Shown one piece after another: positions 6,282-60,759 of a stretch of DNA of 64,000 nt (the stretch's first letter is position 1; each line of letters starts with the position of its first letter). The DNA comes from an uncultured Candidatus Saccharibacteria bacterium (GTDB lineage Bacteria; Patescibacteriota; Andersenbacteria; UBA10190). Position numbers and translations under genes: made by a program. The notes beneath the pieces are model-generated. The model searched no databases and had not been told where the DNA came from. It saw nothing but the letters and a program-made list of their open reading frames with translations. The stretch is from assembly GCA_964443125.1 (NCBI GenBank), contig CAYUBL010000001.1, positions 16,094-80,093 of the forward strand, in the 5' to 3' direction.

Positions 6282-7994
6282 ATGGATAGCGAAGAAATAA
6301 CCGTTATCGGCCAGACGAATTTCCGGAACCAGCGCAGGGCATTCGGCATTTACCCCGATGACCGCAGGCGCCACGTGTATGTGATCGGAAAAACCGGCGT
6401 AGGAAAAACAACCCTCCTCGAAAACATGATCATTCAAGACATCAAGAACGGCAAAGGGTTGGCGCTTGTCGATCCGCACGGCGACGTGGCGGAAAAAATC
6501 CTCGATATCATCCCGCCGGAACGCACCAACGACGTCGTATACTTCGACCCGGCAGACGTTGATTTTCCGGTTGCGTTTAACCCGCTGGAAGCCGTAAATC
6601 CGCAATACAAATATCTCGTCGCATCAGGACTGGTCAGCTCGCTCAAGAAAATATGGGCGGATTCTTGGGGGCCTCGCCTGGAGTATATCTTGCGGAATGT
6701 CATTTTGGCGCTTCTCGACTATCCGTCCAGCACCATGCTGGGAATCATGCGGATGCTCGCGGACAAGGCATACCGGAAGAAAGTTGTGGATACCATCCAA
6801 GACCCCGTCGTGAGAGCATTCTGGACGAACGAATTTGCCAACTACAACGAGCGATTCCGCAGCGAGGCCATTTCTCCCATTCAAAACAAAGTCGGGCAGT
6901 TTTTGAGCTCATCGATTATCCGTAATATCGTCGCCCAGCCCAAGAGCACCATCGACATGCAAGATATCATGGATAACGGAAAGATTTTGCTCATCAACGT
7001 ATCGAAGGGGAGAATCGGAGAAGACAATTCCGCACTCTTGGGCGCCATGCTCATCACCAAGCTTCAACTGGCAGCCATGGACCGCGCAAGCATTCCCGAA
7101 GAGGAGCGGCGAGATTTTTATCTGTACGTAGACGAATTCCAAAACTTCGCGACGGAGTCGTTCGCGACCATTTTGTCTGAAGCCAGAAAATACCGCCTCA
7201 ATCTTATCATTGCGCACCAATATATCACCCAGATGGAAGAAGTGGTCCGCGATGCCGTTTTTGGGAACGTAGGGACCCTCATTTCATTCCGAGTGGGCGC
7301 GTTCGATGCAGAGTACCTGGAAAAAGAATTCGCTCCCTATTTTACCCAGACCGATTTGGTAAATCTCGATAAGTACAACGCCTACATCAAGCTCATGATC
7401 CGCGGAGTAACGAGCGCTCCGTTTTCCATGGAAACCATTCCTCCCGTCTCCGAAACCTATCACAGCAGAGAGAAGGTCATTGCAGTATCGCGCGAGCGAT
7501 ACGGAAACAGGCGGGAAGTCATCGAAGAGAAAATTGCACGATGGAGCGGGGTAGCATTCCAAGCGGAGGCGGAAGAAATCGCGAAAGAAAACCAGCGGCT
7601 CGGACGACAGCTTCCATCCGATGCCCGCCCTCAACAGCAAAGGCAGCCAAAACCGGAAGAGTTGGAAGATATTGTTCTTGCGCCGAAAAAAGAAGAAATG
7701 ATTACGGACTTGTCAGCGCTGCTTGGAAAGAAGGATACTCCTCCTAGTTCATCGCGTGAACAAACCTCCTCTACCCCCTCCCCGCCATTACAGCCGGCAG
7801 GATTTGTAAGGAAGGGAAAGTCGCCCGAACTTTTCGACGCTATCTGTTCCAATTGCGGCAAGCAAACCCAAGTACCCTTCAACCCGGATCCGGAAAAAGA
7901 CGTGTTCTGCAAAGAATGTTACGAAAAGCGCAAAGCGGAGAAGAAAACACTTGCACCAAAGCGCTTCACCGGCCCGCGCCCGCCAAAACTATAG
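6282..7994 (+). CDS. TraD/VirD4/HerA-like P-loop ATPase (type IV coupling-protein-like) with a C-terminal Cys4 zinc ribbon
   Basis: Walker A YVIGKTGVGKTTLL followed by ALVDPHGD, and a Walker B-like LYVDEFQNF, as in TraD/TrwB/HerA-family DNA translocases. The C-terminus carries CSNCGKQ-x15-FCKECY. Confidence 0.65.
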   Translation: MDSEEITVIGQTNFRNQRRAFGIYPDDRRRHVYVIGKTGVGKTTLLENMIIQDIKNGKGLALVDPHGDVAEKILDIIPPERTNDVVYFDPADVDFPVAFNPLEAVNPQYKYLVASGLVSSLKKIWADSWGPRLEYILRNVILALLDYPSSTMLGIMRMLADKAYRKKVVDTIQDPVVRAFWTNEFANYNERFRSEAISPIQNKVGQFLSSSIIRNIVAQPKSTIDMQDIMDNGKILLINVSKGRIGEDNSALLGAMLITKLQLAAMDRASIPEEERRDFYLYVDEFQNFATESFATILSEARKYRLNLIIAHQYITQMEEVVRDAVFGNVGTLISFRVGAFDAEYLEKEFAPYFTQTDLVNLDKYNAYIKLMIRGVTSAPFSMETIPPVSETYHSREKVIAVSRERYGNRREVIEEKIARWSGVAFQAEAEEIAKENQRLGRQLPSDARPQQQRQPKPEELEDIVLAPKKEEMITDLSALLGKKDTPPSSSREQTSSTPSPPLQPAGFVRKGKSPELFDAICSNCGKQTQVPFNPDPEKDVFCKECYEKRKAEKKTLAPKRFTGPRPPKL

Positions 7995-9404: not shown

Positions 9405-11264
9405 ATGAAAACGCTCAACGAGGCTCGCGAGGCATATCTTTCTTTTTTTCAGGAGAAAGGACACGTTCGCATTCCGTCCGCATCGCTCGTCCCGGACAAT
9501 GATCCTACCACGCTGTTCACCGGATCCGGCATGCAGCCGATGGTGCCCTACTTGCTCGGACAAAAACACCCGCAAGGAAGCCGTATCACCGATTCGCAAA
9601 AATGTTTTCGGCTAAACGACATCGAGGACATCGGCGATAACCGCCATACCACATTTTTTGAAATGCTGGGGAATTGGTCGCTGGGCGACTACTTCAAAGA
9701 AGAACAAATTCCCTGGATGTATGAATTTTTAACCAAAAAACTGGGGCTTGATCCGCGCAACCTCTACGTAACATTTTTTGTCGGCAATGAAGAACTAGGC
9801 ATTGTAAAAGACATGACAAGCGCAACTATCTGGCAGAAGATGTTCCAAACAGACGGCATTGAAGCGATTATCAAAGATGATGCGGAATTAAAAGGAATGC
9901 AAGGCGGGCGGATTTTTTCGTACGACGAAAAGAAAAACTGGTGGTCTCGCGCGGGAGTTCCGGAAAATATGCCGATAGGGGAGCCGGGGGGCCCGGACAC
10001 GGAAATGTTTTGGGATTTTGGGGCAGATCTTTTGCTGCATGAAAAGTCTCCGTATAAAAATCAGCCATGCCATGTTAATTGCGACTGCGGACGCTTTATA
10101 GAAATCGGAAACAACGTATTTATGGAGTACATAAAAACGGAAACCGGATTTTCTCCGCTGCCGCAAAAGAACGTGGACTTCGGAGGAGGCCTGGAGCGAA
10201 TTACTGCCGCGCTCAACAATAATCCGGACGTATTTCTCATCGATGCGTTCAAGCCGGCGATGGACAAGCTTTCAGAGCTATCTCAAACCTCGTACGCCGA
10301 TACACAAGAGATTACGACCGCATATCGCGTCATCCTCGATCACGTGCGCGCCGCGGTATTTTTGATCGGAGACGGCGTACTTCCCGGCAATAAAGAACGC
10401 GAATACTTCGTCCGCCGGCTCATCCGCCGTGCGTCCGTATTCGGAAACCGCTTGAATATCAAAGAACCGTTTTTGTCGAAGCTCGCCGACGGCGTGATTG
10501 CGACATATGCCGATGCATACCCGAACCTTACCGATGCGCGCGACACGATTTTACAAGAACTCACCAAAGAAGAAGAAAAATTCTTGCCCACACTCGTGCA
10601 AGGCTTAAAGAAACTTGCGCAGATATTCCACTCACAGGAAGAAGTTTCCGGCGCGCAGGCATTCGAACTGTATGCAACATTCGGATACCCGATTGAAATG
10701 CAGCTGGAAGAAGCCGAAAAAGCGGGGAAGCGCGTTGATACGGAAGGCTTCAAAGAAGAAATGAAGAAACATCAGGATCTCTCTCGCACGGCTACGGAAG
10801 GAAAATTCAAAGGCGGCCTTGCCGATCACTCCGAGATGTCCGTGAAATATCACACGGCAACGCATTTGCTTCACCAGGCGCTGCGCACCGTGCTGGGCGA
10901 ACACGTATTTCAAAAAGGAAGCAATATCACCCCCGAACGGTTGCGGTTCGACTTTTCGCATCCCGATAAAATGACGCCTGAACAGATCAGGCAAACGGAA
11001 GACCTGGTGAATGAACAAATCCAAAGAGACTTGAATGTTACGCACGAAGAAATGAGCGTTGAGGAAGCAAAAAAACGAAACGCGCTTGGGCTATTCGAGC
11101 ATAAGTACGGCGATACGGTAAGCGTGTATACGGTCGGCGATTTCTCGTGTGAAATTTGCGGCGGCCCGCATGTTGAACATACCGGCGTGCTTGGAAAGTT
11201 TGTGATTACAAAAGAAGAATCCGCCGGTGCAGGCGTGAGGCGGATCAAGGCGGTGTTGAAATAA
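9405..11264 (+). CDS. alaS: Alanine--tRNA ligase, short form (catalytic, tRNA-recognition and editing domains; no C-Ala domain)
   Basis: Class II AlaRS N-terminal motifs (FFQEKGHVRIPSASLVP, FTGSGMQP, GNWSLGDYFKEE). Editing-domain HxxxH (HTATHLLHQALR) and CxxxH (CGGPHVEHTG). 619 aa against a typical ~870. Confidence 0.85.
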   Translation: MKTLNEAREAYLSFFQEKGHVRIPSASLVPDNDPTTLFTGSGMQPMVPYLLGQKHPQGSRITDSQKCFRLNDIEDIGDNRHTTFFEMLGNWSLGDYFKEEQIPWMYEFLTKKLGLDPRNLYVTFFVGNEELGIVKDMTSATIWQKMFQTDGIEAIIKDDAELKGMQGGRIFSYDEKKNWWSRAGVPENMPIGEPGGPDTEMFWDFGADLLLHEKSPYKNQPCHVNCDCGRFIEIGNNVFMEYIKTETGFSPLPQKNVDFGGGLERITAALNNNPDVFLIDAFKPAMDKLSELSQTSYADTQEITTAYRVILDHVRAAVFLIGDGVLPGNKEREYFVRRLIRRASVFGNRLNIKEPFLSKLADGVIATYADAYPNLTDARDTILQELTKEEEKFLPTLVQGLKKLAQIFHSQEEVSGAQAFELYATFGYPIEMQLEEAEKAGKRVDTEGFKEEMKKHQDLSRTATEGKFKGGLADHSEMSVKYHTATHLLHQALRTVLGEHVFQKGSNITPERLRFDFSHPDKMTPEQIRQTEDLVNEQIQRDLNVTHEEMSVEEAKKRNALGLFEHKYGDTVSVYTVGDFSCEICGGPHVEHTGVLGKFVITKEESAGAGVRRIKAVLK

Positions 11265-16045: not shown

Positions 16046-16408
16046 ATGCGTAAGAAAAAAAGCAACAGAATATTGGGACGTACCTCCAACCAGCGGCTGC
16101 ATCTCATGCGCAATCTGACCAGCTCGCTGCTTGAGCATGGCTCGATCGTCACGTCGGAAGCGAAGGCCAAAGAGTTGCGCCGCCATTTCGAACCGCTTGT
16201 TACCAAAGCGAAGAGCGAACTGACGCTGGCAAATCGCCGCCGCCTGCTTTCCGAGGTATCGGGAAAAGAAGAGCTTGTCCGCTTGCTGGATGTTGCAAAG
16301 AGCAACCAGAAACGCCCCGGGGGATACCTTCGCATTACCAAGCTTCCCGTAGACCGCACCGATGCGGCAAAAATGGCACGGGTTGACATTGTCGCCCAAT
16401 CGAAATAA
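16046..16408 (+). CDS. rplQ: 50S ribosomal protein L17
   Basis: L17 sequence (LGRTSNQRLHLMRNLTSSLLEHGSIVTSEAKAKELRR...). Confidence 0.9.
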   Translation: MRKKKSNRILGRTSNQRLHLMRNLTSSLLEHGSIVTSEAKAKELRRHFEPLVTKAKSELTLANRRRLLSEVSGKEELVRLLDVAKSNQKRPGGYLRITKLPVDRTDAAKMARVDIVAQSK

Positions 16409-53757: not shown

Positions 53758-53982
53758 GTGCACCTTCAATCCATCGCAGAACCCCGCCCGATCGTCCAAG
53801 CCCTCTTGACCATTCTGTCCTTGGTTCTCGCGCCTCCTCTTATCCTGTGCTTCGCCTGCATTGCCGTTGCGCTCAATCTGTTCTTTACAAGACAAGGACA
53901 AAGAGCTCTCGTGGTGTTCATAATCGGCGTCCTCATCCTATCCTTTTGGATATGGATTATAGGCGCCATCCGAACCCCTTGA
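53758..53982 (+). CDS. Small membrane protein (74 aa, 2 TM)
   Basis: GTG start with AAGGAGA RBS (6-nt spacer). Two hydrophobic helices. A terminator follows. Confidence 0.5.
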   Translation: MHLQSIAEPRPIVQALLTILSLVLAPPLILCFACIAVALNLFFTRQGQRALVVFIIGVLILSFWIWIIGAIRTP

Positions 53983-54008
53983 TGACAGAGCGCATCAACT
54001 CAACCCCC

Positions 54009-54036
54009 AACGCCGATCACCCGATCGGCGTTTTTT
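54009..54036 (+). terminator. Rho-independent terminator CGCCGATC-accc-GATCGGCG-TTTTTT; left edge of the AT-rich island
   Basis: 8-bp perfect stem followed by T6. GC content drops sharply to its right. Confidence 0.7.
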
Positions 54037-54481
54037 CTTGCTCAAGTTTTTCTAGTTGTATTTTGCGGAGTTGTTCATATATAGCATCAACCTCTTGCTC
54101 TATTACAGAGCGATCATGCCCTTGAGTCTCTAGCTCCCAAAGTACTTCTTCTACCGCTTTATCAAAATCATTGCCATATTTCACATTAATCTTTTTCCAA
54201 TGCACATTTGCAAATAGCTTTGCAATATCGGGGGAATAGGCAATTTTACCAAGCAGCATGAGCACAGCGATCATCGGATACCCGATGTACTTCTGCCAAT
54301 ACGTTCCATTATCATTTGAAATCATCGCGCTTGCGTCCGCATTCCATTTCACCACATACGATTTATCGCGAGATGAAGACGTAACTTTTGCCTTGTTCCC
54401 ATCCAGCAGATCGACACGCCCATCTGCCACGGTAGATAGCGCCTCATATACTTTTGCCTTTGGTGGAACTTTCCAGAGCAT
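54017..54481 (-). CDS. Hypothetical protein (minus strand, divergent from the nuclease-like gene)
   Basis: About 154-aa ORF (start taken as MLWKVPPKAK). Its 3' end runs into the terminator stem, so the exact end is uncertain. No family recognised. Confidence 0.35.
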   Translation of the reverse strand: MLWKVPPKAKVYEALSTVADGRVDLLDGNKAKVTSSSRDKSYVVKWNADASAMISNDNGTYWQKYIGYPMIAVLMLLGKIAYSPDIAKLFANVHWKKINVKYGNDFDKAVEEVLWELETQGHDRSVIEQEVDAIYEQLRKIQLEKLEQEKTPIG

Positions 54482-54538
54482 ATACTCATCATATCGAAAA
54501 ATATTCGGTTTTTGTACGTTATAAGATAGAATACAAAC

Positions 54539-55030
54539 ATGCCTATCCAGAAACAAAATGTTGGCAATGCAGGAGAGTATTACATTGCTGCTAGACTATC
54601 TGCAGAGAATTTTATCGCGACAATAACTCTGGGCCGTGCTGAAAAGTACGATATTCTTGCGCTAAGCCCAACCTCTAGAAGTGTACGACTTTCCGTCAAA
54701 ACGCAATTCTTAAAAACATCAAAATCATTCCCCCTGTCCGAAAAGGATGAAAGAGGGGAGTCAGAAGATTTTTACTATTGTTTTATCCGACTCAATGAAT
54801 TTCAGCAAGAGCCTGATTTTTGGATCATACCAAGCACTATTGTATGTCCGATACTAAAAAATTCACACGCAAAATGGCTAAGCGGAATGGGTAAGAACGG
54901 CCACATCAGAAAAGATACCTCGATGAGACTCCTGCCGCTGATCGTTTCGAGCGGATTACTAGAATTCTATCCCGAAAAATGGGAAGATGACTTAGCGCAG
55001 TATTACAAAAATATTGAACAATTGACCTAA
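54539..55030 (+). CDS. PD-(D/E)xK-fold (Hjc/restriction-endonuclease-like) nuclease candidate
   Basis: N-terminal VGNAGEYYIAARLSAENF...AEKYDILAL...VRLSVKT reproduces the GxxGE-x(n)-DIxA-x(n)-(E/S)VK pattern of Hjc-type resolvases and small restriction-like nucleases. The third acidic position is Ser. Confidence 0.45.
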   Translation: MPIQKQNVGNAGEYYIAARLSAENFIATITLGRAEKYDILALSPTSRSVRLSVKTQFLKTSKSFPLSEKDERGESEDFYYCFIRLNEFQQEPDFWIIPSTIVCPILKNSHAKWLSGMGKNGHIRKDTSMRLLPLIVSSGLLEFYPEKWEDDLAQYYKNIEQLT

Positions 55031-55043
55031 AAGAATATAAGAA

Positions 55044-55544
55044 ATGAGAAAAACAATTATAATATCACCGACAAAACCATTAATAGTAACAATAACACCA
55101 CTTGCTCTTGCTATAATATCCGATGATTTTCATAACGCAGCAGAAAAACTCTCGATTAAAGATCGTATTTCTTTGGTAAAATATTATTTGTACCTAGCGG
55201 CAATAGAGAGAGGATTAAAAGCAGCTATCCTAAGCAAAGAATTCACGAAAGAAAAAAAGGGGTATCTGAAAAATAGAATCGGACATGATATCGAAAGGCT
55301 ATATCAAGATTTTAAAAAATCATTTGCTTTGGATTTATTCAACAAAAGTGACCTAAAATCTTTAAAAAAAGCTAACGCGAGATACAGAGACAAGGGATTT
55401 GAATACTTTGACAGTGATATGCTGTATCAAGCAGCAATAGGGTTTAAAGATTTACCAAGCCTAGAAGGGATTCGCAGTATAAGCAAGAAAGTTAATGCTT
55501 TTCTTATACGAAATAAGTCTTTCATAGAACAGGGGTCCAGCTAA
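55044..55544 (+). CDS. Hypothetical alpha-helical protein (loose HEPN-like resemblance, unconfirmed)
   Basis: 166 aa with ERGLKAAILSKEF...LKNRIGHDIERLY. A charged R-x-x-H-D-x-E patch in a helical scaffold, which does not cleanly fit the Rx4-6H motif. Confidence 0.3.
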   Translation: MRKTIIISPTKPLIVTITPLALAIISDDFHNAAEKLSIKDRISLVKYYLYLAAIERGLKAAILSKEFTKEKKGYLKNRIGHDIERLYQDFKKSFALDLFNKSDLKSLKKANARYRDKGFEYFDSDMLYQAAIGFKDLPSLEGIRSISKKVNAFLIRNKSFIEQGSS

Positions 55545-55592
55545 TATTCGGTTTTTGTATCTAGTAAAAATGGGATACTATTAATATTAGGT

Positions 55593-56549
55593 ATGTCTAC
55601 AAGACAAGCAGTCAAGAATATACAAGAGGAATTTGGCCTTAGTCCAATATATGCTGAACGAGTTTACTCGTTAGCAAATAAAGATAATTTATCTGAAGAC
55701 GTGGCACGGATTATCGCGGAAAAGCCCAAACCTTTTGTAAAATGGGTAGGAGGCAAACGCCAGCTTTTGACACAGTTTAAAACTCTCAATCTCTACCCTC
55801 CATCTCGTTTTGATATTCATAAAGGAACGTATTATGAGCCTTTTATTGGTGGAGGCGCTGTATTCTTCGATCTCCTACCAGCAAAGGCGGTTCTATCTGA
55901 TTTAAACGAAGAACTCGTCATCACATACAAAGTTATTCAACATGATGCACAAAAACTCATTGAATCTTTAAAAAAGCATAAGAACAACAAAGAATATTTT
56001 CTAAAAGTACGAGCGCTGGACTGGAAAGACTTGAGCGACATTGAAACTGCTTCTCGATTTATTTTCTTAAATCGAACTTGTTTTAATGGGCTGTATCGAG
56101 TTAACAGCAAAGGGCAATTCAATGTTCCATTTGGAAAGTATGTAAAACCTCTTATTTGCGATGAAGAGAATATAAGAAAAGTATCAAAAGCACTACAGGG
56201 CATTAAGATCATACATAGTGACTATAAAAAAACAGTACGCAAAGCTCAAGAAGGAGACTTTGTATATTTTGACCCACCTTACTATCCAATCAGTAAAACG
56301 TCGTCATTTACCTCGTATACAAAAGAGTCTTTTTTAGAGAACAATCAGATAGAGCTTCGAGACACGTTTGCAGAATTGCACAAAAGGGGCTGTTTTATAA
56401 TGCTCTCGAACTCTGATACACCATTTATTAATGATATTTACTCTACAATCAAAGGGGCCACTATTACAAAGGTTCGTGCCGGTAGGGCGGTAAACGCCAA
56501 TGCGAGAGGGAGAGGGAAGATTGCCGAGATTCTCGTAACTAATTACTAA
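55593..56549 (+). CDS. Dam-family (D12 class) N6-adenine DNA methyltransferase
   Basis: Collinear with E. coli Dam/DpnM: FVKWVGGKRQLL, YYEPFIGGGAVFF (motif I), FLNRTCFNGLYRVNSKGQFNVPFGKY, and DFVYFDPPYYPISKTSSFTSYT (motif IV DPPY). Confidence 0.85.
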   Translation: MSTRQAVKNIQEEFGLSPIYAERVYSLANKDNLSEDVARIIAEKPKPFVKWVGGKRQLLTQFKTLNLYPPSRFDIHKGTYYEPFIGGGAVFFDLLPAKAVLSDLNEELVITYKVIQHDAQKLIESLKKHKNNKEYFLKVRALDWKDLSDIETASRFIFLNRTCFNGLYRVNSKGQFNVPFGKYVKPLICDEENIRKVSKALQGIKIIHSDYKKTVRKAQEGDFVYFDPPYYPISKTSSFTSYTKESFLENNQIELRDTFAELHKRGCFIMLSNSDTPFINDIYSTIKGATITKVRAGRAVNANARGRGKIAEILVTNY

Positions 56550-56556
56550 AAATAAT

Positions 56557-57816
56557 ATGACGAAGATATCTGATGCCTGGGAGAAAGTGTTTGCAATAAA
56601 AAACTACGACCTAACAAAGAACCTGCATTCCATTACAGCTAAAGAGATTAAACAGATTACAGGTGAAGAGCCACGTATAATGGCAAAGTTCGATTCTTCT
56701 ATGGACCTACCAAACATCATGAAGAAAAATGGATATTTTTTATTGCCAGTAAAAAACGGAGAATACGCTATAGTTCGCGGTAACGGCTTCCATACACTTG
56801 AAAAAACAAGAGATTGGACAAACCACACATCACGTATCAAATTTAATTTAACAACAGCTGGTCGCGGGTTAAGTGAAATGCAGTATTTGGACTATAGCTT
56901 TAACTCTGGAGCGCTTGAGGACATTCTAGACATTACGCCCCTGTACCAATCTATTCGTGGACGTGAATACAGCAAACAATTTCACTTTGCGGTCGACAAG
57001 ACCAAAATTAACGTTGAATCCGTTCAGCTTGAAGTAGATTCTGGTCTTGAGGGCGAAGATTCCATTGTCCTTATTGAAGCTAAAGTCAAAAGTCCCGAAG
57101 ATTTTATTATTCGTCAACTTTTCTACCCATATAATCATTTTAGAATTGTATCTCCAGACAAGAGAGTAATTCCTGTCTTTTTTGTTTATGAACCATCATC
57201 ACAACTTTATCATTTCTGGATATACGAATTTACAGATCCCGCCAATTATAACTCTATTCGCCTGAAAGAGATCAAATCACTAATGATAAGCACTGAACAA
57301 GAGATAAAACTATCCGACATCAAGCCAAAGGGAATAGTTAATTACAAGGATCTCATTCCTCAAGCAAATGACCTGAATAAAGTAATTGAGCTCGCATTTA
57401 AGGTTAAAGAAGGCGTAAATCATTATAAAAAAGTTGCGGAATATTTTAAATTTAATGAACGACAAAGTAGCTACTACAGAGAAGCAGCAGAGGCCCTGGG
57501 ACTAGTCATAAGCGAAAAAGGTGCTTACCAATTAACCGACATTGGTAAACATTTAGTAGCCCTGCCGGCAGAAAAACGTAATTTATTTATGGTGGAACTA
57601 TTAAGTGATTTCAGCTTAATTAAAAGAAGTCTGAATATTCTTGAGAGCAACGGTAAATTACTCCAAGATGACCTAGAAAATATTATTGAGCAACAATCTT
57701 ACTTAAGTCAGTCGACAATTTCGCGTCGCGCTGGATCTCTTAAAAGGTGGCTTGAATGGATATCAGAAGCCACTGGTTCCTTTACAAACGAAGAGAATGA
57801 GTTCCGAACAGAATAA
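56557..57816 (+). CDS. Putative type II restriction endonuclease (PD-(D/E)xK core) with a C-terminal winged-helix-like extension
   Basis: Lies between two DNA methyltransferase genes. EVDSGLEGEDSIVLIEAKVKS fits a D-x(n)-E-x-K nuclease motif. No match to DpnII recognised by eye. Confidence 0.5.
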   Translation: MTKISDAWEKVFAIKNYDLTKNLHSITAKEIKQITGEEPRIMAKFDSSMDLPNIMKKNGYFLLPVKNGEYAIVRGNGFHTLEKTRDWTNHTSRIKFNLTTAGRGLSEMQYLDYSFNSGALEDILDITPLYQSIRGREYSKQFHFAVDKTKINVESVQLEVDSGLEGEDSIVLIEAKVKSPEDFIIRQLFYPYNHFRIVSPDKRVIPVFFVYEPSSQLYHFWIYEFTDPANYNSIRLKEIKSLMISTEQEIKLSDIKPKGIVNYKDLIPQANDLNKVIELAFKVKEGVNHYKKVAEYFKFNERQSSYYREAAEALGLVISEKGAYQLTDIGKHLVALPAEKRNLFMVELLSDFSLIKRSLNILESNGKLLQDDLENIIEQQSYLSQSTISRRAGSLKRWLEWISEATGSFTNEENEFRTE

Positions 57817-58567
57817 ACCCGGGATAGATCTACATGACTTTGAGCTAGAATGCACTACCGTTTGGGCTTTTCCACGCAGAGGCAACTGGGCAACACATAC
57901 TTCGGACTGGAGAGGCAATTGGGCGCCAGAAGTAGTACGAAATCTTATTTTGAGATATTCGAAAGAAAAAGATATTCTCTTCGATCCAATGATTGGTGGC
58001 GGAACTACTGCCATAGAAGCCAAGATTCTAAACCGGAATATCATCTGCTCAGATGTTAACAAAAAAGCCCTAAAAAGAACTAAGGATTGTCTAAACTTCG
58101 AAATTGACAATACATCTTGGCAAAAAATCTATAGGTGGGATGCGCGCGACTTAAATAAACTCCCCAATGAAAGCATTGATTTTATCCTCACACATCCTCC
58201 ATACGCCGACATTATAAAATATAGCGAGGGTAAAATAAATTCCGATATGTCAAACATCCATGATTTGGAAGAGTTTGCGAACGAGATGGAGAAAGTTGCT
58301 AAAGAGTTATATCGGGTACTTAAGCCTGGTAAGTTTTGTGCAATACTCATAGGAGACACTCGACGCAAAAAGATGTATCAACCCTTGGCGTATAAAGTAA
58401 TGGATAGATTCCTAAAAGCAGGATTCCAGCTGAAAGAGGATATTATTAAAAGACAATTCAACTGCAAAGCAACTGGTTTCTGGGCTAAGAGGTCACAAGA
58501 GTCAAATTTTCTCCTAATCATGCACGAGCATTTGTTTGTGTTTCAGAAAATTAGACCTAATGATTAA
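57797..58567 (+). CDS. N6/N4-type DNA methyltransferase (PF01555-like; DpnA/MboC-like second methylase)
   Basis: Motif I-like FDPMIGGGTTAIEAKILN. Motif IV is THPPY (His in place of D/N/S). Start taken as MSSEQNK (GAAGAGA RBS), 20-nt overlap with the upstream gene. Confidence 0.7.
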   Translation: MSSEQNKPGIDLHDFELECTTVWAFPRRGNWATHTSDWRGNWAPEVVRNLILRYSKEKDILFDPMIGGGTTAIEAKILNRNIICSDVNKKALKRTKDCLNFEIDNTSWQKIYRWDARDLNKLPNESIDFILTHPPYADIIKYSEGKINSDMSNIHDLEEFANEMEKVAKELYRVLKPGKFCAILIGDTRRKKMYQPLAYKVMDRFLKAGFQLKEDIIKRQFNCKATGFWAKRSQESNFLLIMHEHLFVFQKIRPND

Positions 58568-58699
58568 ATCTTTAATCTTTATTAGAAATAATATTAATAT
58601 CACAGGTCTGTTCTTTGACAGCTAAGGAAGTTGTCGCCAGAACATCAATACTCCCTTAAACTAATTAACAATAAGATACCATAACCTTTCGTTGAATAT

Positions 58700-59845
58700 A
58701 TGAAAGTAACAGTGAGGCCAATAGTCCTAAAAGGATGGCGTATCAGAAAAGGATTACCGCTCGAGGCTGTAGTAGCAAAAACAAAGATCGAAGAGTCCGA
58801 AATAAGTCACTGGGAAACTCACAGAAGCGAGATAAGTGTTGCCGATCTCAAAAAGATAGCGAAGTTTTATAGGTTATCGTGGACAGCATTTTTACTAGAT
58901 GAACTGCCTCCATCAAAAAAAGATCCAGTAAACCACAGGCGGCGACCTGATGCTAAGGATTTTTCTCCGGAGACATTGCAAGCTTTTACGCGTGCTAGGC
59001 ATATTCTTGAGTTTGCATCTGACATTGGCTTAGTAAAAGAAAATAAACTCACGGAGAGGTTCCCCACCGCAATAACTCATAATCCTGAACTTGTTGCCTC
59101 AAAGGTCAGAAGTTATATAGAAACACCTTTTGATCATCAACTAAAATGGCGCAATGCCAATGTGGCGAAACGTAAATGGATTGATATTCTTGAGCGAGAG
59201 GGTATTTATATTGCCGAAATGGATATGCCCGAAGTTGAAGCGAGGGGTTTTTCACTGAAGGAAAGCGGAAGGGATATTATAGTCTTGAGTAAAAATGATT
59301 CCGTAAACGGTCGTATATTTTCTCTATTTCATGAGGTAGCCCATTTGTTACTTAAAAAGTCCGGTGTTTGCGACATGTATGAAGGTAATGGTCCCGATCA
59401 AAGAGTGGATAGAACCGAAGTATTTTGCAATGCATTTGCGGGTGCTTTTCTTTTACCGAGTCAAAGCTTCCTAAATGATAGTTTAGTTATATCAGCAATA
59501 AGGGAAAAGAACTTTTCCGATTCGGTCCTACAATATTTGGGAAAACGCTTTAATGTTAGTGCTGCCGTTGTACTAAGAAGACTAAATAACTTTGGATATA
59601 TTTCTAGTCAAGAATATAAACGTCGCTACACAGACGAACAAGATATGTATGTTGAGAGTGAAGAGAAAAATAAAAAGGGCTTCGCACGACATGAATACAA
59701 AGTTATCAATCAAAATGGGCGCGCGTTCACGTCTGAAGTGATTACTGCGTATGCTTCGAATATTATTACTGCTCATGATGTTAGCAATTACCTCAATACA
59801 ACCGTAAGAAGTATTTCGCGTATTGAGCAAGCGCTTTCTAAATAG
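58700..59845 (+). CDS. ImmA/IrrE-family (COG2856) zinc metallopeptidase with an N-terminal XRE-like HTH
   Basis: HEXXH site FHEVAHLLL and an N-terminal HTH-like segment (SVADLKKIAKFYRLSWTAFL). Confidence 0.7.
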   Translation: MKVTVRPIVLKGWRIRKGLPLEAVVAKTKIEESEISHWETHRSEISVADLKKIAKFYRLSWTAFLLDELPPSKKDPVNHRRRPDAKDFSPETLQAFTRARHILEFASDIGLVKENKLTERFPTAITHNPELVASKVRSYIETPFDHQLKWRNANVAKRKWIDILEREGIYIAEMDMPEVEARGFSLKESGRDIIVLSKNDSVNGRIFSLFHEVAHLLLKKSGVCDMYEGNGPDQRVDRTEVFCNAFAGAFLLPSQSFLNDSLVISAIREKNFSDSVLQYLGKRFNVSAAVVLRRLNNFGYISSQEYKRRYTDEQDMYVESEEKNKKGFARHEYKVINQNGRAFTSEVITAYASNIITAHDVSNYLNTTVRSISRIEQALSK

Positions 59846-59850
59846 TTTCC

Positions 59851-60360
59851 ATGAACGCTCAACTCAGCATGGAGCAGCTCTACTGCATAGACAGCTCAGC
59901 TCTTATAGAGTTGTGGAATCCTGACAACTGGCAATTGCCAAAGGATGTATCCCAACTGATTTGGTCTCATGTAGATACTCTTGTTGCCCAGCAACGAATC
60001 ATTTCTTCACGCGAGGTTTACGATGAAATTAAGGATGATTTAAATGATGGCTTCAGGCAATGGATGCGAGTGCATCGCGACATATTCCTAGAGCTAGATA
60101 GTGAACAAATTAAACTGGGCAAGGCGATAGTTAATAAATATCCCCTACTGACTGATGGGGGTAGAAATCATGCCGACCCATTTGTGGTATCAGTGGCCAA
60201 AGCTCATGGTGCGACTGTCATTGGCTGCGAAAAACCTGTGACTACAACGCACTCACAGATAAGACCAAAAATCCCTAGCCTATGCCACGAACACGCAGTT
60301 GAATATGTCACAATTAAAGATTTTTGCATGAAGGAAAGACTGAGTTTCCGGTTAGCGTAA
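59851..60360 (+). CDS. DUF4411-family (PIN-like) protein, partner of the ImmA/IrrE peptidase
   Basis: 169 aa. PIN-like N-terminus YCIDSSALIEL with conserved Asp. 5-nt spacing from the upstream peptidase gene. Confidence 0.55.
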   Translation: MNAQLSMEQLYCIDSSALIELWNPDNWQLPKDVSQLIWSHVDTLVAQQRIISSREVYDEIKDDLNDGFRQWMRVHRDIFLELDSEQIKLGKAIVNKYPLLTDGGRNHADPFVVSVAKAHGATVIGCEKPVTTTHSQIRPKIPSLCHEHAVEYVTIKDFCMKERLSFRLA

Positions 60361-60540
60361 AGAAAGACTAGGTCCATGAGCTGAATAGAGATACGTTTAT
60401 CATTCCCGTAAGCGACAAAACGGATGCGATGCGGATCGGGATGGGACTAGAGCTGCTGACAATTGTATATTTTAACGGGCGGACAACTGAAGAAATCCAG
60501 CAGGCCGAAAAATACGGTGTTCGACGAAACGGGCAAGGGA

Positions 60541-60759
60541 ATGACGCTTCGGCAGTTCGGGAAGAAAACCCTGAAAGACGTTCAGACGCGATGTCTGCGA
60601 AAATCGGATATTATCAAGCAGGGAATCGTGACGAAGAAGCGGCTGCAAGCGGCGATCGAGCGCGGGCAGGTGCAGGAGATTAGGATAGGCAAAAGCGTAT
60701 ATATCGATCGGAAAGAGCTCCTCGGAATCTTGCAAGGACAGCAGCGGTTGGGCGTTTAG
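60541..60759 (+). CDS. Excisionase/AlpA-like HTH DNA-binding protein (orphan)
   Basis: KKRLQAAIERGQVQEIRIGKSVYIDRKELLGIL fits the HTH_17/excisionase pattern. No integrase gene is visible in the window. Confidence 0.5.
   Translation: MTLRQFGKKTLKDVQTRCLRKSDIIKQGIVTKKRLQAAIERGQVQEIRIGKSVYIDRKELLGILQGQQRLGV

Follow-up and report, generated by a model that had tools for sequence, protein, structure and literature searches.

Does a tightly spaced pair of genes that adjoins a restriction-modification (R-M) cassette in an uncultured Candidatus Saccharibacteria bacterium encode a toxin together with its antitoxin, and if so, how would the toxin be held in check and set free? The two genes, the open reading frames (ORFs) ORF1 and ORF2, lie on the plus strand of contig CAYUBL010000001.1 (GenBank assembly GCA_964443125.1), within a stretch of 64,000 nucleotides (positions 16,094 to 80,093 of the contig) that I refer to as the window; coordinates below are positions within this window and are collected in Table 1. 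As called in the ORF list, ORF1 encodes 381 amino acids (aa) and ORF2 169 aa, and only 5 nucleotides (nt) separate the stop codon of the first from the start codon of the second, with the junction reading TAG-TTTCC-ATG. The pair is a divergent but complete copy of a type of module that is already known and experimentally characterised, that of VapBC52 from Mycobacterium tuberculosis. It probably works as a type II toxin-antitoxin (TA) or abortive-infection module of the VapBC52 kind, similar to RosmerTA, with a DUF4411 PIN toxin and a mechanism that is triggered by single-stranded DNA (ssDNA).

The evidence that carries this reading is the homology of both proteins to a pair of known structure. 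Compared with the PDB, the family profile of ORF1 matches 9vzy_A ('HTH cro/C1-type domain-containing protein') with E = 1.3e-99 over positions 9-385 of 389, and the family profile of ORF2 matches 9vzy_D ('DUF4411 family protein') over its full length (E = 6e-48), as well as 9vzz, a DUF4411 protein in which an alanine replaces the first active-site Asp. Both entries, 9VZY and 9VZZ, represent VapB52/VapC52 of M. tuberculosis (Rv2515c/Rv2514c; Singh et al., Nucleic Acids Res 2026, PMC13273310). Pairwise comparison gives the same correspondence, end to end for both proteins: ORF1 shares 24% identity with VapB52 (E = 3e-32, residues 9-378), and ORF2 shares 26% with VapC52 (E = 5e-16). The two pairs agree in their antitoxin-first order and tight coupling, in a three-domain antitoxin of about 390 aa with an HExxH motif, a glutamate ligand, a switch cysteine and an invariant linker arginine, and in a DUF4411 PIN toxin with four acidic residues. 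They differ in the linker motif, which is N-H-R in the window and D-F-R in VapBC52, and in a disordered N-terminal extension of about 23 residues, which was removed from VapB52 for crystallisation and which is absent from ORF1. The setting differs as well, as the pair in the window, known here from its sequence alone, stands beside an R-M cassette in an island of low guanine-plus-cytosine (GC) content.

ORF1 is recognised by Pfam as Peptidase_M78 (residues 165-296, E = 5e-18, score 65 bits, cut-off 22) and, in its N-terminal part, as the helix-turn-helix (HTH) family HTH_3 (residues 11-62, E = 1e-6, over the curated cut-off). The AlphaFold2 (AF2) model of the protein has a predicted local distance difference test (pLDDT) of 92 and a predicted template modelling score (pTM) of 0.89, and its predicted layout agrees with the published one of VapB52, namely five helices at the N-terminus, the sheet of the peptidase, a subdomain of four helices and four more at the C-terminus. 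In the model, the N-terminal helices span residues 7-16, 21-28, 32-40, 47-57 and 61-65, and the C-terminal ones residues 331-339, 341-352, 358-365 and 369-380. The confidence of the prediction dips in two places, in the linker and in the loop of residues 221-240 around C224, the putative switch loop (pLDDT 66-68). VapB52 attaches to the outer face of its toxin by the N-terminal domain, without which it does not bind; its middle domain combines an HTH motif with a peptidase that resembles IrrE and CapP, and its C-terminal domain of four helices blocks the active site of the PIN protein. The VapB52:VapC52 complex is 1:2, with a Kd of about 270 nM and an open toxin dimer (PMC13273310).

In order to judge which residues matter, conservation was counted across 94 full-length relatives of ORF1 (25-35% identity). 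The residues H211, H215, C224 and E240 correspond to H216, H220, C229 and E245 of VapB52 with a constant offset of +5. These are the zinc ligands of VapB52 in its resting state, with C229 acting as a 'cysteine switch' (PMC13273310), and by this correspondence I infer that C224 would be a zinc ligand as well. Self-cleavage of VapB52 is set off by ssDNA and releases the N-terminal domain, whereas an HExxH mutant remains uncut (PMC13273310). In the linker of ORF1, the residues N78-H79-R80 (58931-58939) are the counterpart of the D-[F/Y]-R ('FR') motif of the family, and by analogy they are the probable site of self-cleavage; the arginine is invariant in all 94 relatives. A second cysteine, C243 (59426-59428), distinct from C224 and located three residues past E240 in an E-x-F-C-N motif, is near-invariant (93/94), as is the N244 that follows it (93/94); no mention of an equivalent cysteine was found in the available portion of PMC13273310.

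Pfam DUF4411 is matched by ORF2 over the whole of the profile (positions 1-159 of 159) with E = 2e-23 and a score of 83 bits, the cut-off being 23.5, and 1,277 representative clusters in a library of 1.84 billion proteins are related to it at E <= 1e-3. Its predicted fold is that of a PIN domain, and the closest solved structures are VapC toxins. Counted across an alignment of 96 diverse homologues, the acidic residues D14, E59, D109 and E127 are conserved throughout or nearly so, and they take the four places at which a PIN active site should have acidic residues. VapC52 is a tRNase whose cuts fall in the anticodon loop or the variable loop; the five tRNAs of phage D29 are all among its substrates, and M. 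smegmatis overexpressing the toxin was protected from this phage (PMC13273310). A cysteine of ORF2, C145 (60283-60285), which belongs to a P-K-I-P-x-x-C motif, matches D109 and E127 in being invariant (96/96), and VapC52 has a counterpart (PRIPDVC). Canonical PIN domains are not known to have a residue like C145. No role for the equivalent cysteine was found in the available part of PMC13273310. Another cysteine, C12 in the motif Y-C-I-D, is also frequent (72/96).

These matches bear out an earlier note on the same DNA, in which ORF1 was described as a COG2856/M78 peptidase with an XRE-type N-terminus and the gene 5 nt after it as a PIN-like DUF4411 gene; the acidic residues that such a protein should have are present on alignment, and the two genes also occur together elsewhere. 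One genome per species was scanned with an alignment of six sequences, which resulted in 51 loci encoding DUF4411 relatives, and in 50 of them the DUF4411 gene is immediately preceded, on its own strand, by the gene for a full-length homologue of ORF1 (E 3e-8 to 1e-61). At the exception (L054), only 231 nt of contig precede the DUF4411 ORF. The ORF ends, as called, are mostly no more than about 10 nt apart or overlap slightly. The 51 loci are found in bacteria (Nitrospirota, Acidobacteriota, Planctomycetota, Bacteroidota, Zixibacteria, Alphaproteobacteria, Actinomycetes and Bacillota) and in archaea (Thermoplasmata, Methanothrix and Methanobacteria). The same arrangement is present on eight metagenome contigs and in all three plasmid loci inspected, from Leptospira, Arthrobacter and Bradyrhizobium. 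Homologues are also present on conjugative and mobilisable plasmids, and families encoded by phages exist for both proteins, namely phrog_2439 (full length, 2e-43) and phrog_11126.

The closest comparison is offered by an 85%-identical relative from another sample (L060), which has the N-terminus and the spacer length of the window copy and an unrelated downstream flank. The ratio of nonsynonymous to synonymous polymorphism (pN/pS) between the two is 0.10 for ORF2 and 0.21 for the C-terminus of ORF1, with synonymous sites near saturation, and both genes are under purifying selection. Apart from this, about a fifth of the related loci contain a disrupted toxin or antitoxin gene: DUF4411 is split in four (L029, L039, L051, L052) and truncated in three (L048, L055, L057), the ORF1 homologue is split in two (L026, L056), and at one further locus (L040) an intact toxin stands beside an ORF1 homologue of which just the C-terminal 137 aa are present. 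Such disruptions could reflect decay of the module or errors in the assembly of metagenome-assembled genomes (MAGs). If the last of these cases is real, the C-terminal fragment alone might still cover the active site of the toxin.

The structural neighbours of ORF1 allow for another explanation. Foldseek places its modelled middle domain next to IrrE (3dti), PrpR (6cyy), CapP (7t5t) and PprI with ssDNA (8sln), and its N-terminal domain next to C.BclI, SinR and the N-terminal domain of CapH, with target-normalised TM-scores of 0.7-0.9. ORF1 could thus be an anti-repressor in the style of ImmA/ImmR, IrrE/DdrO or CapP/CapH, acting on its neighbours, be it the R-M genes or a mobile element, with the DUF4411 protein as regulated cargo; the nearness of the middle domain to IrrE, PprI, CapP and PrpR, the resemblance of the N-terminal domain to the R-M controller (C) proteins C.BclI and C.Esp1396I, and the location of ORF1 directly downstream of an R-M operon are all in line with this. 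I consider it highly improbable nonetheless. CapP/CapH (which serves in CBASS regulation), IrrE/DdrO and ImmA/ImmR have the M78 peptidase fold in common with ORF1 (7t5t, 3dti and 8sln), but in these systems a separate repressor is cleaved and transcription is induced, whereas in the VapBC52 type the protease is its own substrate and the output is the release of a toxin. In the window, no separate small XRE repressor gene was found adjoining ORF1, as the gene upstream is a methylase and the HTH domain is fused to the protease, and hence ORF1-ORF2 is not a two-protein switch of the ImmA/ImmR type. Moreover, Pfam and further family scans found no integrase or recombinase gene in the island, the conserved partner in 50 of the 51 loci is DUF4411 and not an R-M or integrase gene, and the crystal structure of VapBC52 shows direct 1:2 binding with an occluded active site (PMC13273310). 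The logic of a cysteine switch activated by ssDNA is, according to the same paper, common to VapB52 and CapP.

By homology with VapBC52, ORF1 would be a three-domain antitoxin and ORF2 an endoribonuclease of the PIN fold. In the resting state, one ORF1 protein would clamp a dimer of ORF2, with the HTH domain on the outside of one subunit and the C-terminal domain over the active site, and the M78 peptidase of ORF1 would be auto-inhibited, with C224 as the fourth zinc ligand of the 'cysteine switch'. Once ssDNA, as it arises when phages replicate or DNA is damaged, is bound to the middle domain, the switch loop would be displaced and ORF1 would cut its own linker near N78-H79-R80. An ORF1 protein that has lost its N-terminal domain would release ORF2, which would then cleave tRNAs in the anticodon or variable loop and stop translation in the infected cell. 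The suggestion in the earlier note of a toxin under proteolytic control, or of a switch for abortive infection, gains support in this way, by analogy with VapBC52.

Several observations weigh against this mechanism as applied to ORF1-ORF2. With an identity of only 24-26% to the VapBC52 proteins, the trigger and the substrate specificity could be different. The conserved 'FR' motif at the domain junction of VapB52 is itself termed only a 'probable' cleavage site and is unmapped (PMC13273310), and in the window this motif deviates from the family: position 79, which is F in 50, Y in 36, H in 4 and L in 4 of the 94 relatives, is a histidine, and position 78, which is D in 85 and N in 4, is an asparagine. 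In ORF2, position 125, two residues before E127, is a glycine, the sole glycine among 96 sequences of which 85 have Thr or Ser. A consensus scan of the sequence upstream of ORF1 (58568..58699) gave no convincing sigma-70 promoter or terminator. Finally, co-expression of VapB52 and VapC52 gave no protection from D29 (PMC13273310); protection was thus conferred by the free toxin only and not by the pair, so that defence by the native module is still unproven for the family.

The rare residues, of which His79 and Asn78 each occur in 4 of 94 sequences and Gly125 in 1 of 96, and the split or truncated DUF4411 genes at seven of the related loci could also indicate that the copy in the window is decaying or inactive, with self-cleavage or nuclease activity disabled and the pair persisting as a harmless remnant. 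This is very unlikely, as both ORFs are intact, of full length and equipped with all catalytic residues, and as the low pN/pS values against the relative from the other sample, which retains the same N-terminus and spacer length, show continued purifying selection.

The failure of the intact VapBC52 pair to shield M. smegmatis from D29 bears on a different alternative, in which the pair is a plain addiction module that stabilises the R-M island or plasmids by post-segregational killing, the toxin being freed on gene loss without any sensing of phages. The position of the pair at the end of a low-GC island and the homologues on conjugative and mobilisable plasmids agree with such a role, and heterogeneous neighbourhoods, as described below, are expected of a selfish mobile cassette. 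However, a conserved, apparently auto-inhibited sensor protease (HExxH, E240, C224) would be needless in a passive, unstable antitoxin, the self-cleavage of VapB52 is specific to ssDNA (PMC13273310), and the PADLOC RmrA models that match ORF1 were derived from a phage-defence system. I therefore regard mere addiction as unlikely, although roles in addiction and in defence can coexist.

A module of the VapBC52 kind shares features with several systems described before. The RosmerTA systems (RmrT/RmrA) are TA systems that function in phage defence (Millman et al. 2022; Ernits et al. 2023, PMC10440598). Like ORF1, RmrA consists of an HTH domain and an M78 zinc peptidase, and 16 PADLOC RmrA models match ORF1, the best of them being PDLC03949 (E = 6.4e-23, residues 10-374). 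The validated RmrT toxins described so far are either of unknown function or cause membrane depolarisation, and none is a PIN nuclease, in contrast to ORF2. No model of PADLOC v2.0.0, the RmrT models included, matches ORF2 at E <= 0.01; lacking a catalogued RmrT match, the locus is Rosmer-like in its working and not a catalogued member, and PADLOC v2 would probably not call it a Rosmer system. Pairing with PIN-like toxins is reported for the ImmA antitoxin node of NetFlax (Ernits et al. 2023, PMC10440598), and a literature search on RmrA/RmrT turned up no study on the mechanism of a Rosmer toxin of the PIN type. The architecture had been anticipated: Matelska and co-workers (2017, PMC5499597) predicted 'three-component' DUF955-HTH-PIN systems, in which DUF4411.1 is located downstream of a fused HTH-DUF955 gene, exactly as in the window, and the locus is also one more instance of the COG2856-Xre systems of Makarova and co-workers (2009). 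Both studies offered predictions only, without a mechanism. Canonical VapBC pairs have a PIN-fold toxin as well, and tRNase activity is established for VapC52; however, canonical VapB antitoxins measure 8-13 kDa and assemble with a closed VapC dimer in a ratio of 2:2 or 4:4 (PMC13273310), as opposed to the 381 aa of ORF1 with its enzyme domain. ORF1 is far too large for a canonical VapB and bears an enzyme, and the pair is thus not a canonical VapBC.

Whether the neighbouring R-M cassette has a part in the function of the pair is a separate matter. The earlier note held the module to be recurrent in defence islands, of which the recurrence as a two-gene module stands and the defence islands hold only in part: a homology search with the R-M proteins of the window detected a DNA methylase inside the fetched flanks of 4 out of 55 comparison loci. 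For the most part, the genes nearest to the pair in the 51 loci are housekeeping genes or unrelated ones. Among 119 such neighbours there are 3 DNA methylases and 3 integrases, and the housekeeping genes include those for ribose-5-phosphate isomerase, GcpE and a Na+/H+ antiporter. In a Nitrospira sp. MAG (L009, VGWY01000016.1, 3097-9004), the pair is located between type III mod and res genes (PADLOC MTase_III, E = 1e-198, and REase_III, E = 3e-184), all on one strand and with gaps of about 10 nt; here the TA module is embedded in an R-M operon. The copy on the Leptospira plasmid and two further loci adjoin DNA methylases, and in a locus from Methanosarcinales (L016) the pair adjoins a Dsr1-like gene. 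R-M adjacency is a recurrent yet minority pattern, and the behaviour of the pair is that of an independent mobile module which now and then comes to stand next to an R-M system.

A functional link between a latent toxin and its R-M neighbours has a known example. PrrC is a tRNA-cleaving anticodon nuclease embedded in the type I R-M locus EcoprrI, where it is restrained by the R-M proteins themselves and freed by a phage peptide; it resembles the pair in its R-M adjacency, with a type II cassette in the window, and has no sequence or fold relationship with it. ORF1-ORF2 could be a second-line suicide nuclease coupled to the R-M cassette, with restriction and exonuclease processing yielding the ssDNA that would throw the switch of ORF1. 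Translation would then be shut off only after restriction had been engaged but had failed, a logic similar to that of PrrC/EcoprrI. The hints in this direction are all positional, being the location of the pair after a methylase-endonuclease-methylase cassette on the same strand, the Nitrospira operon and the methylase-adjoining loci, and I find such a coupling quite improbable.

The value of the VapBC52 assignment lies mainly in annotation, and nothing in it overturns current understanding. RefSeq labels such pairs as 'XRE family transcriptional regulator' and 'DUF4411 family protein' and PADLOC v2 has no model for the toxin, so that such loci probably go uncounted as TA or defence systems, whereas the link to VapBC52 provides pairs of the ORF1-ORF2 type with a tested mechanism. 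The view in the earlier note that they are poorly characterised experimentally has been overtaken by the VapBC52 structures (9VZY/9VZZ) and by the data on self-cleavage, tRNase activity and phage (PMC13273310). That paper presents VapBC52 as 'unique' among VapBC pairs; its architecture is that of a family spread over bacteria, archaea, plasmids and phages. The window copy is a distant natural variant, and its N-H-R linker bears on the requirements of the self-cleavage site; I count the invariant toxin cysteine C145, alongside N-H-R, as bearing on these requirements as well.

Table 1. Coordinates of the ORF1-ORF2 pair, its domains and conserved residues, and the adjoining R-M cassette (positions in the window; conservation among 94 relatives for ORF1 and 96 for ORF2).
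Feature	Position	Strand	Evidence or remark
Dam-family D12 methylase	55593-56549	+	Pfam, PADLOC, NCBIfam
Type II endonuclease, DUF6996/DUF6997/DUF7226	56557-57816	+	Pfam; PADLOC REase_II
N6_N4 methylase	57752-58567	+	Pfam, PADLOC, NCBIfam
AT-rich spacer of 132 nt, second methylase to ORF1	58568..58699	+	presumed promoter/operator, from its position
ORF1, VapB52-type antitoxin: HTH, M78 zinc peptidase and four-helix C-terminal domain	58700..59845	+	Pfam, PADLOC, PDB profile match, AF2
N-terminal domain, residues 1-66, predicted five-helix XRE/Cro-type HTH	58700..58897	+	HTH_3; AF2 model
Linker, residues 67-89	58898..58966	+	lowest-confidence part, pLDDT 71-77 (AF2)
Middle domain, residues 90-300, IrrE/CapP-like M78 peptidase with predicted four-helix HTH-like subdomain	58967..59599	+	conservation, AF2, Foldseek
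Zinc site H211-E212-x-x-H215	59330-59344	+	invariant, 94/94
Putative cysteine-switch residue C224	59369-59371	+	90/94
Zinc ligand E240	59417-59419	+	invariant, 94/94
C-terminal domain, residues 331-381, four predicted helices	59690..59842	+	AF2; aligns to VapB52 C-terminus (profile and pairwise)
ORF1-ORF2 spacer TTTCC	59846..59850	+	junction sequence; same length in L060, where it reads CTTTT
ORF2, DUF4411/VapC52-type PIN-domain toxin, predicted tRNase	59851..60360	+	Pfam, conservation, PDB profile match
ORF2 D14	59890-59892	+	95/96
ORF2 E59	60025-60027	+	91/96; Asp in the remaining 5
ORF2 D109	60175-60177	+	96/96
ORF2 E127	60229-60231	+	96/96

The R-M cassette (55593..58567) shares the strand of the pair, and 132 nt lie between its end and the start of ORF1. 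Its two methylases belong to different classes and surround an endonuclease built of DUF domains only, and the ORFs of the endonuclease and the N6_N4 methylase, as called, overlap by 65 nt. The motif GATC occurs at 270 sites in the window, as against 353 +/- 15 in dinucleotide shuffles; it is not depleted against the mononucleotide expectation, and the island contains 21 sites where 22 are expected. According to the earlier note, the pair caps an island containing R-M and nuclease genes, which is correct as to the R-M genes; a nuclease beyond the endonuclease is weakly supported, by a sub-threshold PD-(D/E)XK match (PDDEXK_5, E = 0.12) of the ORF at 54539-55030 (+). Two phage families without a known function, phrog_29029 (3e-7) and phrog_26985 (5e-6), are also matched by this ORF. 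Together with the ORFs at 55044-55544 (+) and 54017-54556 (-), likewise upstream of the R-M cassette, it received no assignment from Pfam, NCBIfam or PADLOC. An exact repeat of 17 nt, AATATTCGGTTTTTGTA, is present at 54500-54516 and at 55543-55559, each copy just upstream of the start of a plus-strand gene (22 nt before 54539 and 33 nt before 55593).

The low-GC island as a whole extends from about 53950 to 60400 (some 6.4 kb), with a GC content of 0.32-0.45 as compared to about 0.52 in the flanks, and the ORF1-ORF2 pair forms its 3' end. A repeat search of its boundaries found no convincing flanking direct repeats. In the promoter and terminator scan, promoter-like sites were fewer than in shuffled sequences and none usable was found upstream of ORF1, and the sequence preceding the ATG of ORF1 has no clear Shine-Dalgarno sequence. 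Directly 3' of the toxin gene, where the GC content climbs back to the level of the host, an ORF of 98 aa (60463-60759, +) has a sub-threshold match to HTH_17 of the excisionase type (E = 0.044) and could be a remnant of the element that brought the island.

The remainder of the window is ordinary bacterial chromosome, with genes for AlaS, SecA, SecD, MrdA, LysS and DnaX. Distant from the pair, an ORF of 570 aa (6282-7994, +) shows weak similarity to VirD4/TraD coupling proteins, far under the curated cut-offs, and its product ends in a CxxC-x17-CxxC domain; the ORF may be a trace left by a second element, mobile or conjugative. The alanine-tRNA ligase at 9405-11264 (+) is of a short form that may hint at the lineage of the host, with 619 aa and a match to NCBIfam PRK01584 (a model of 595 positions, E = 2e-208), as compared to the 847 positions of TIGR00344, the usual bacterial AlaS model.

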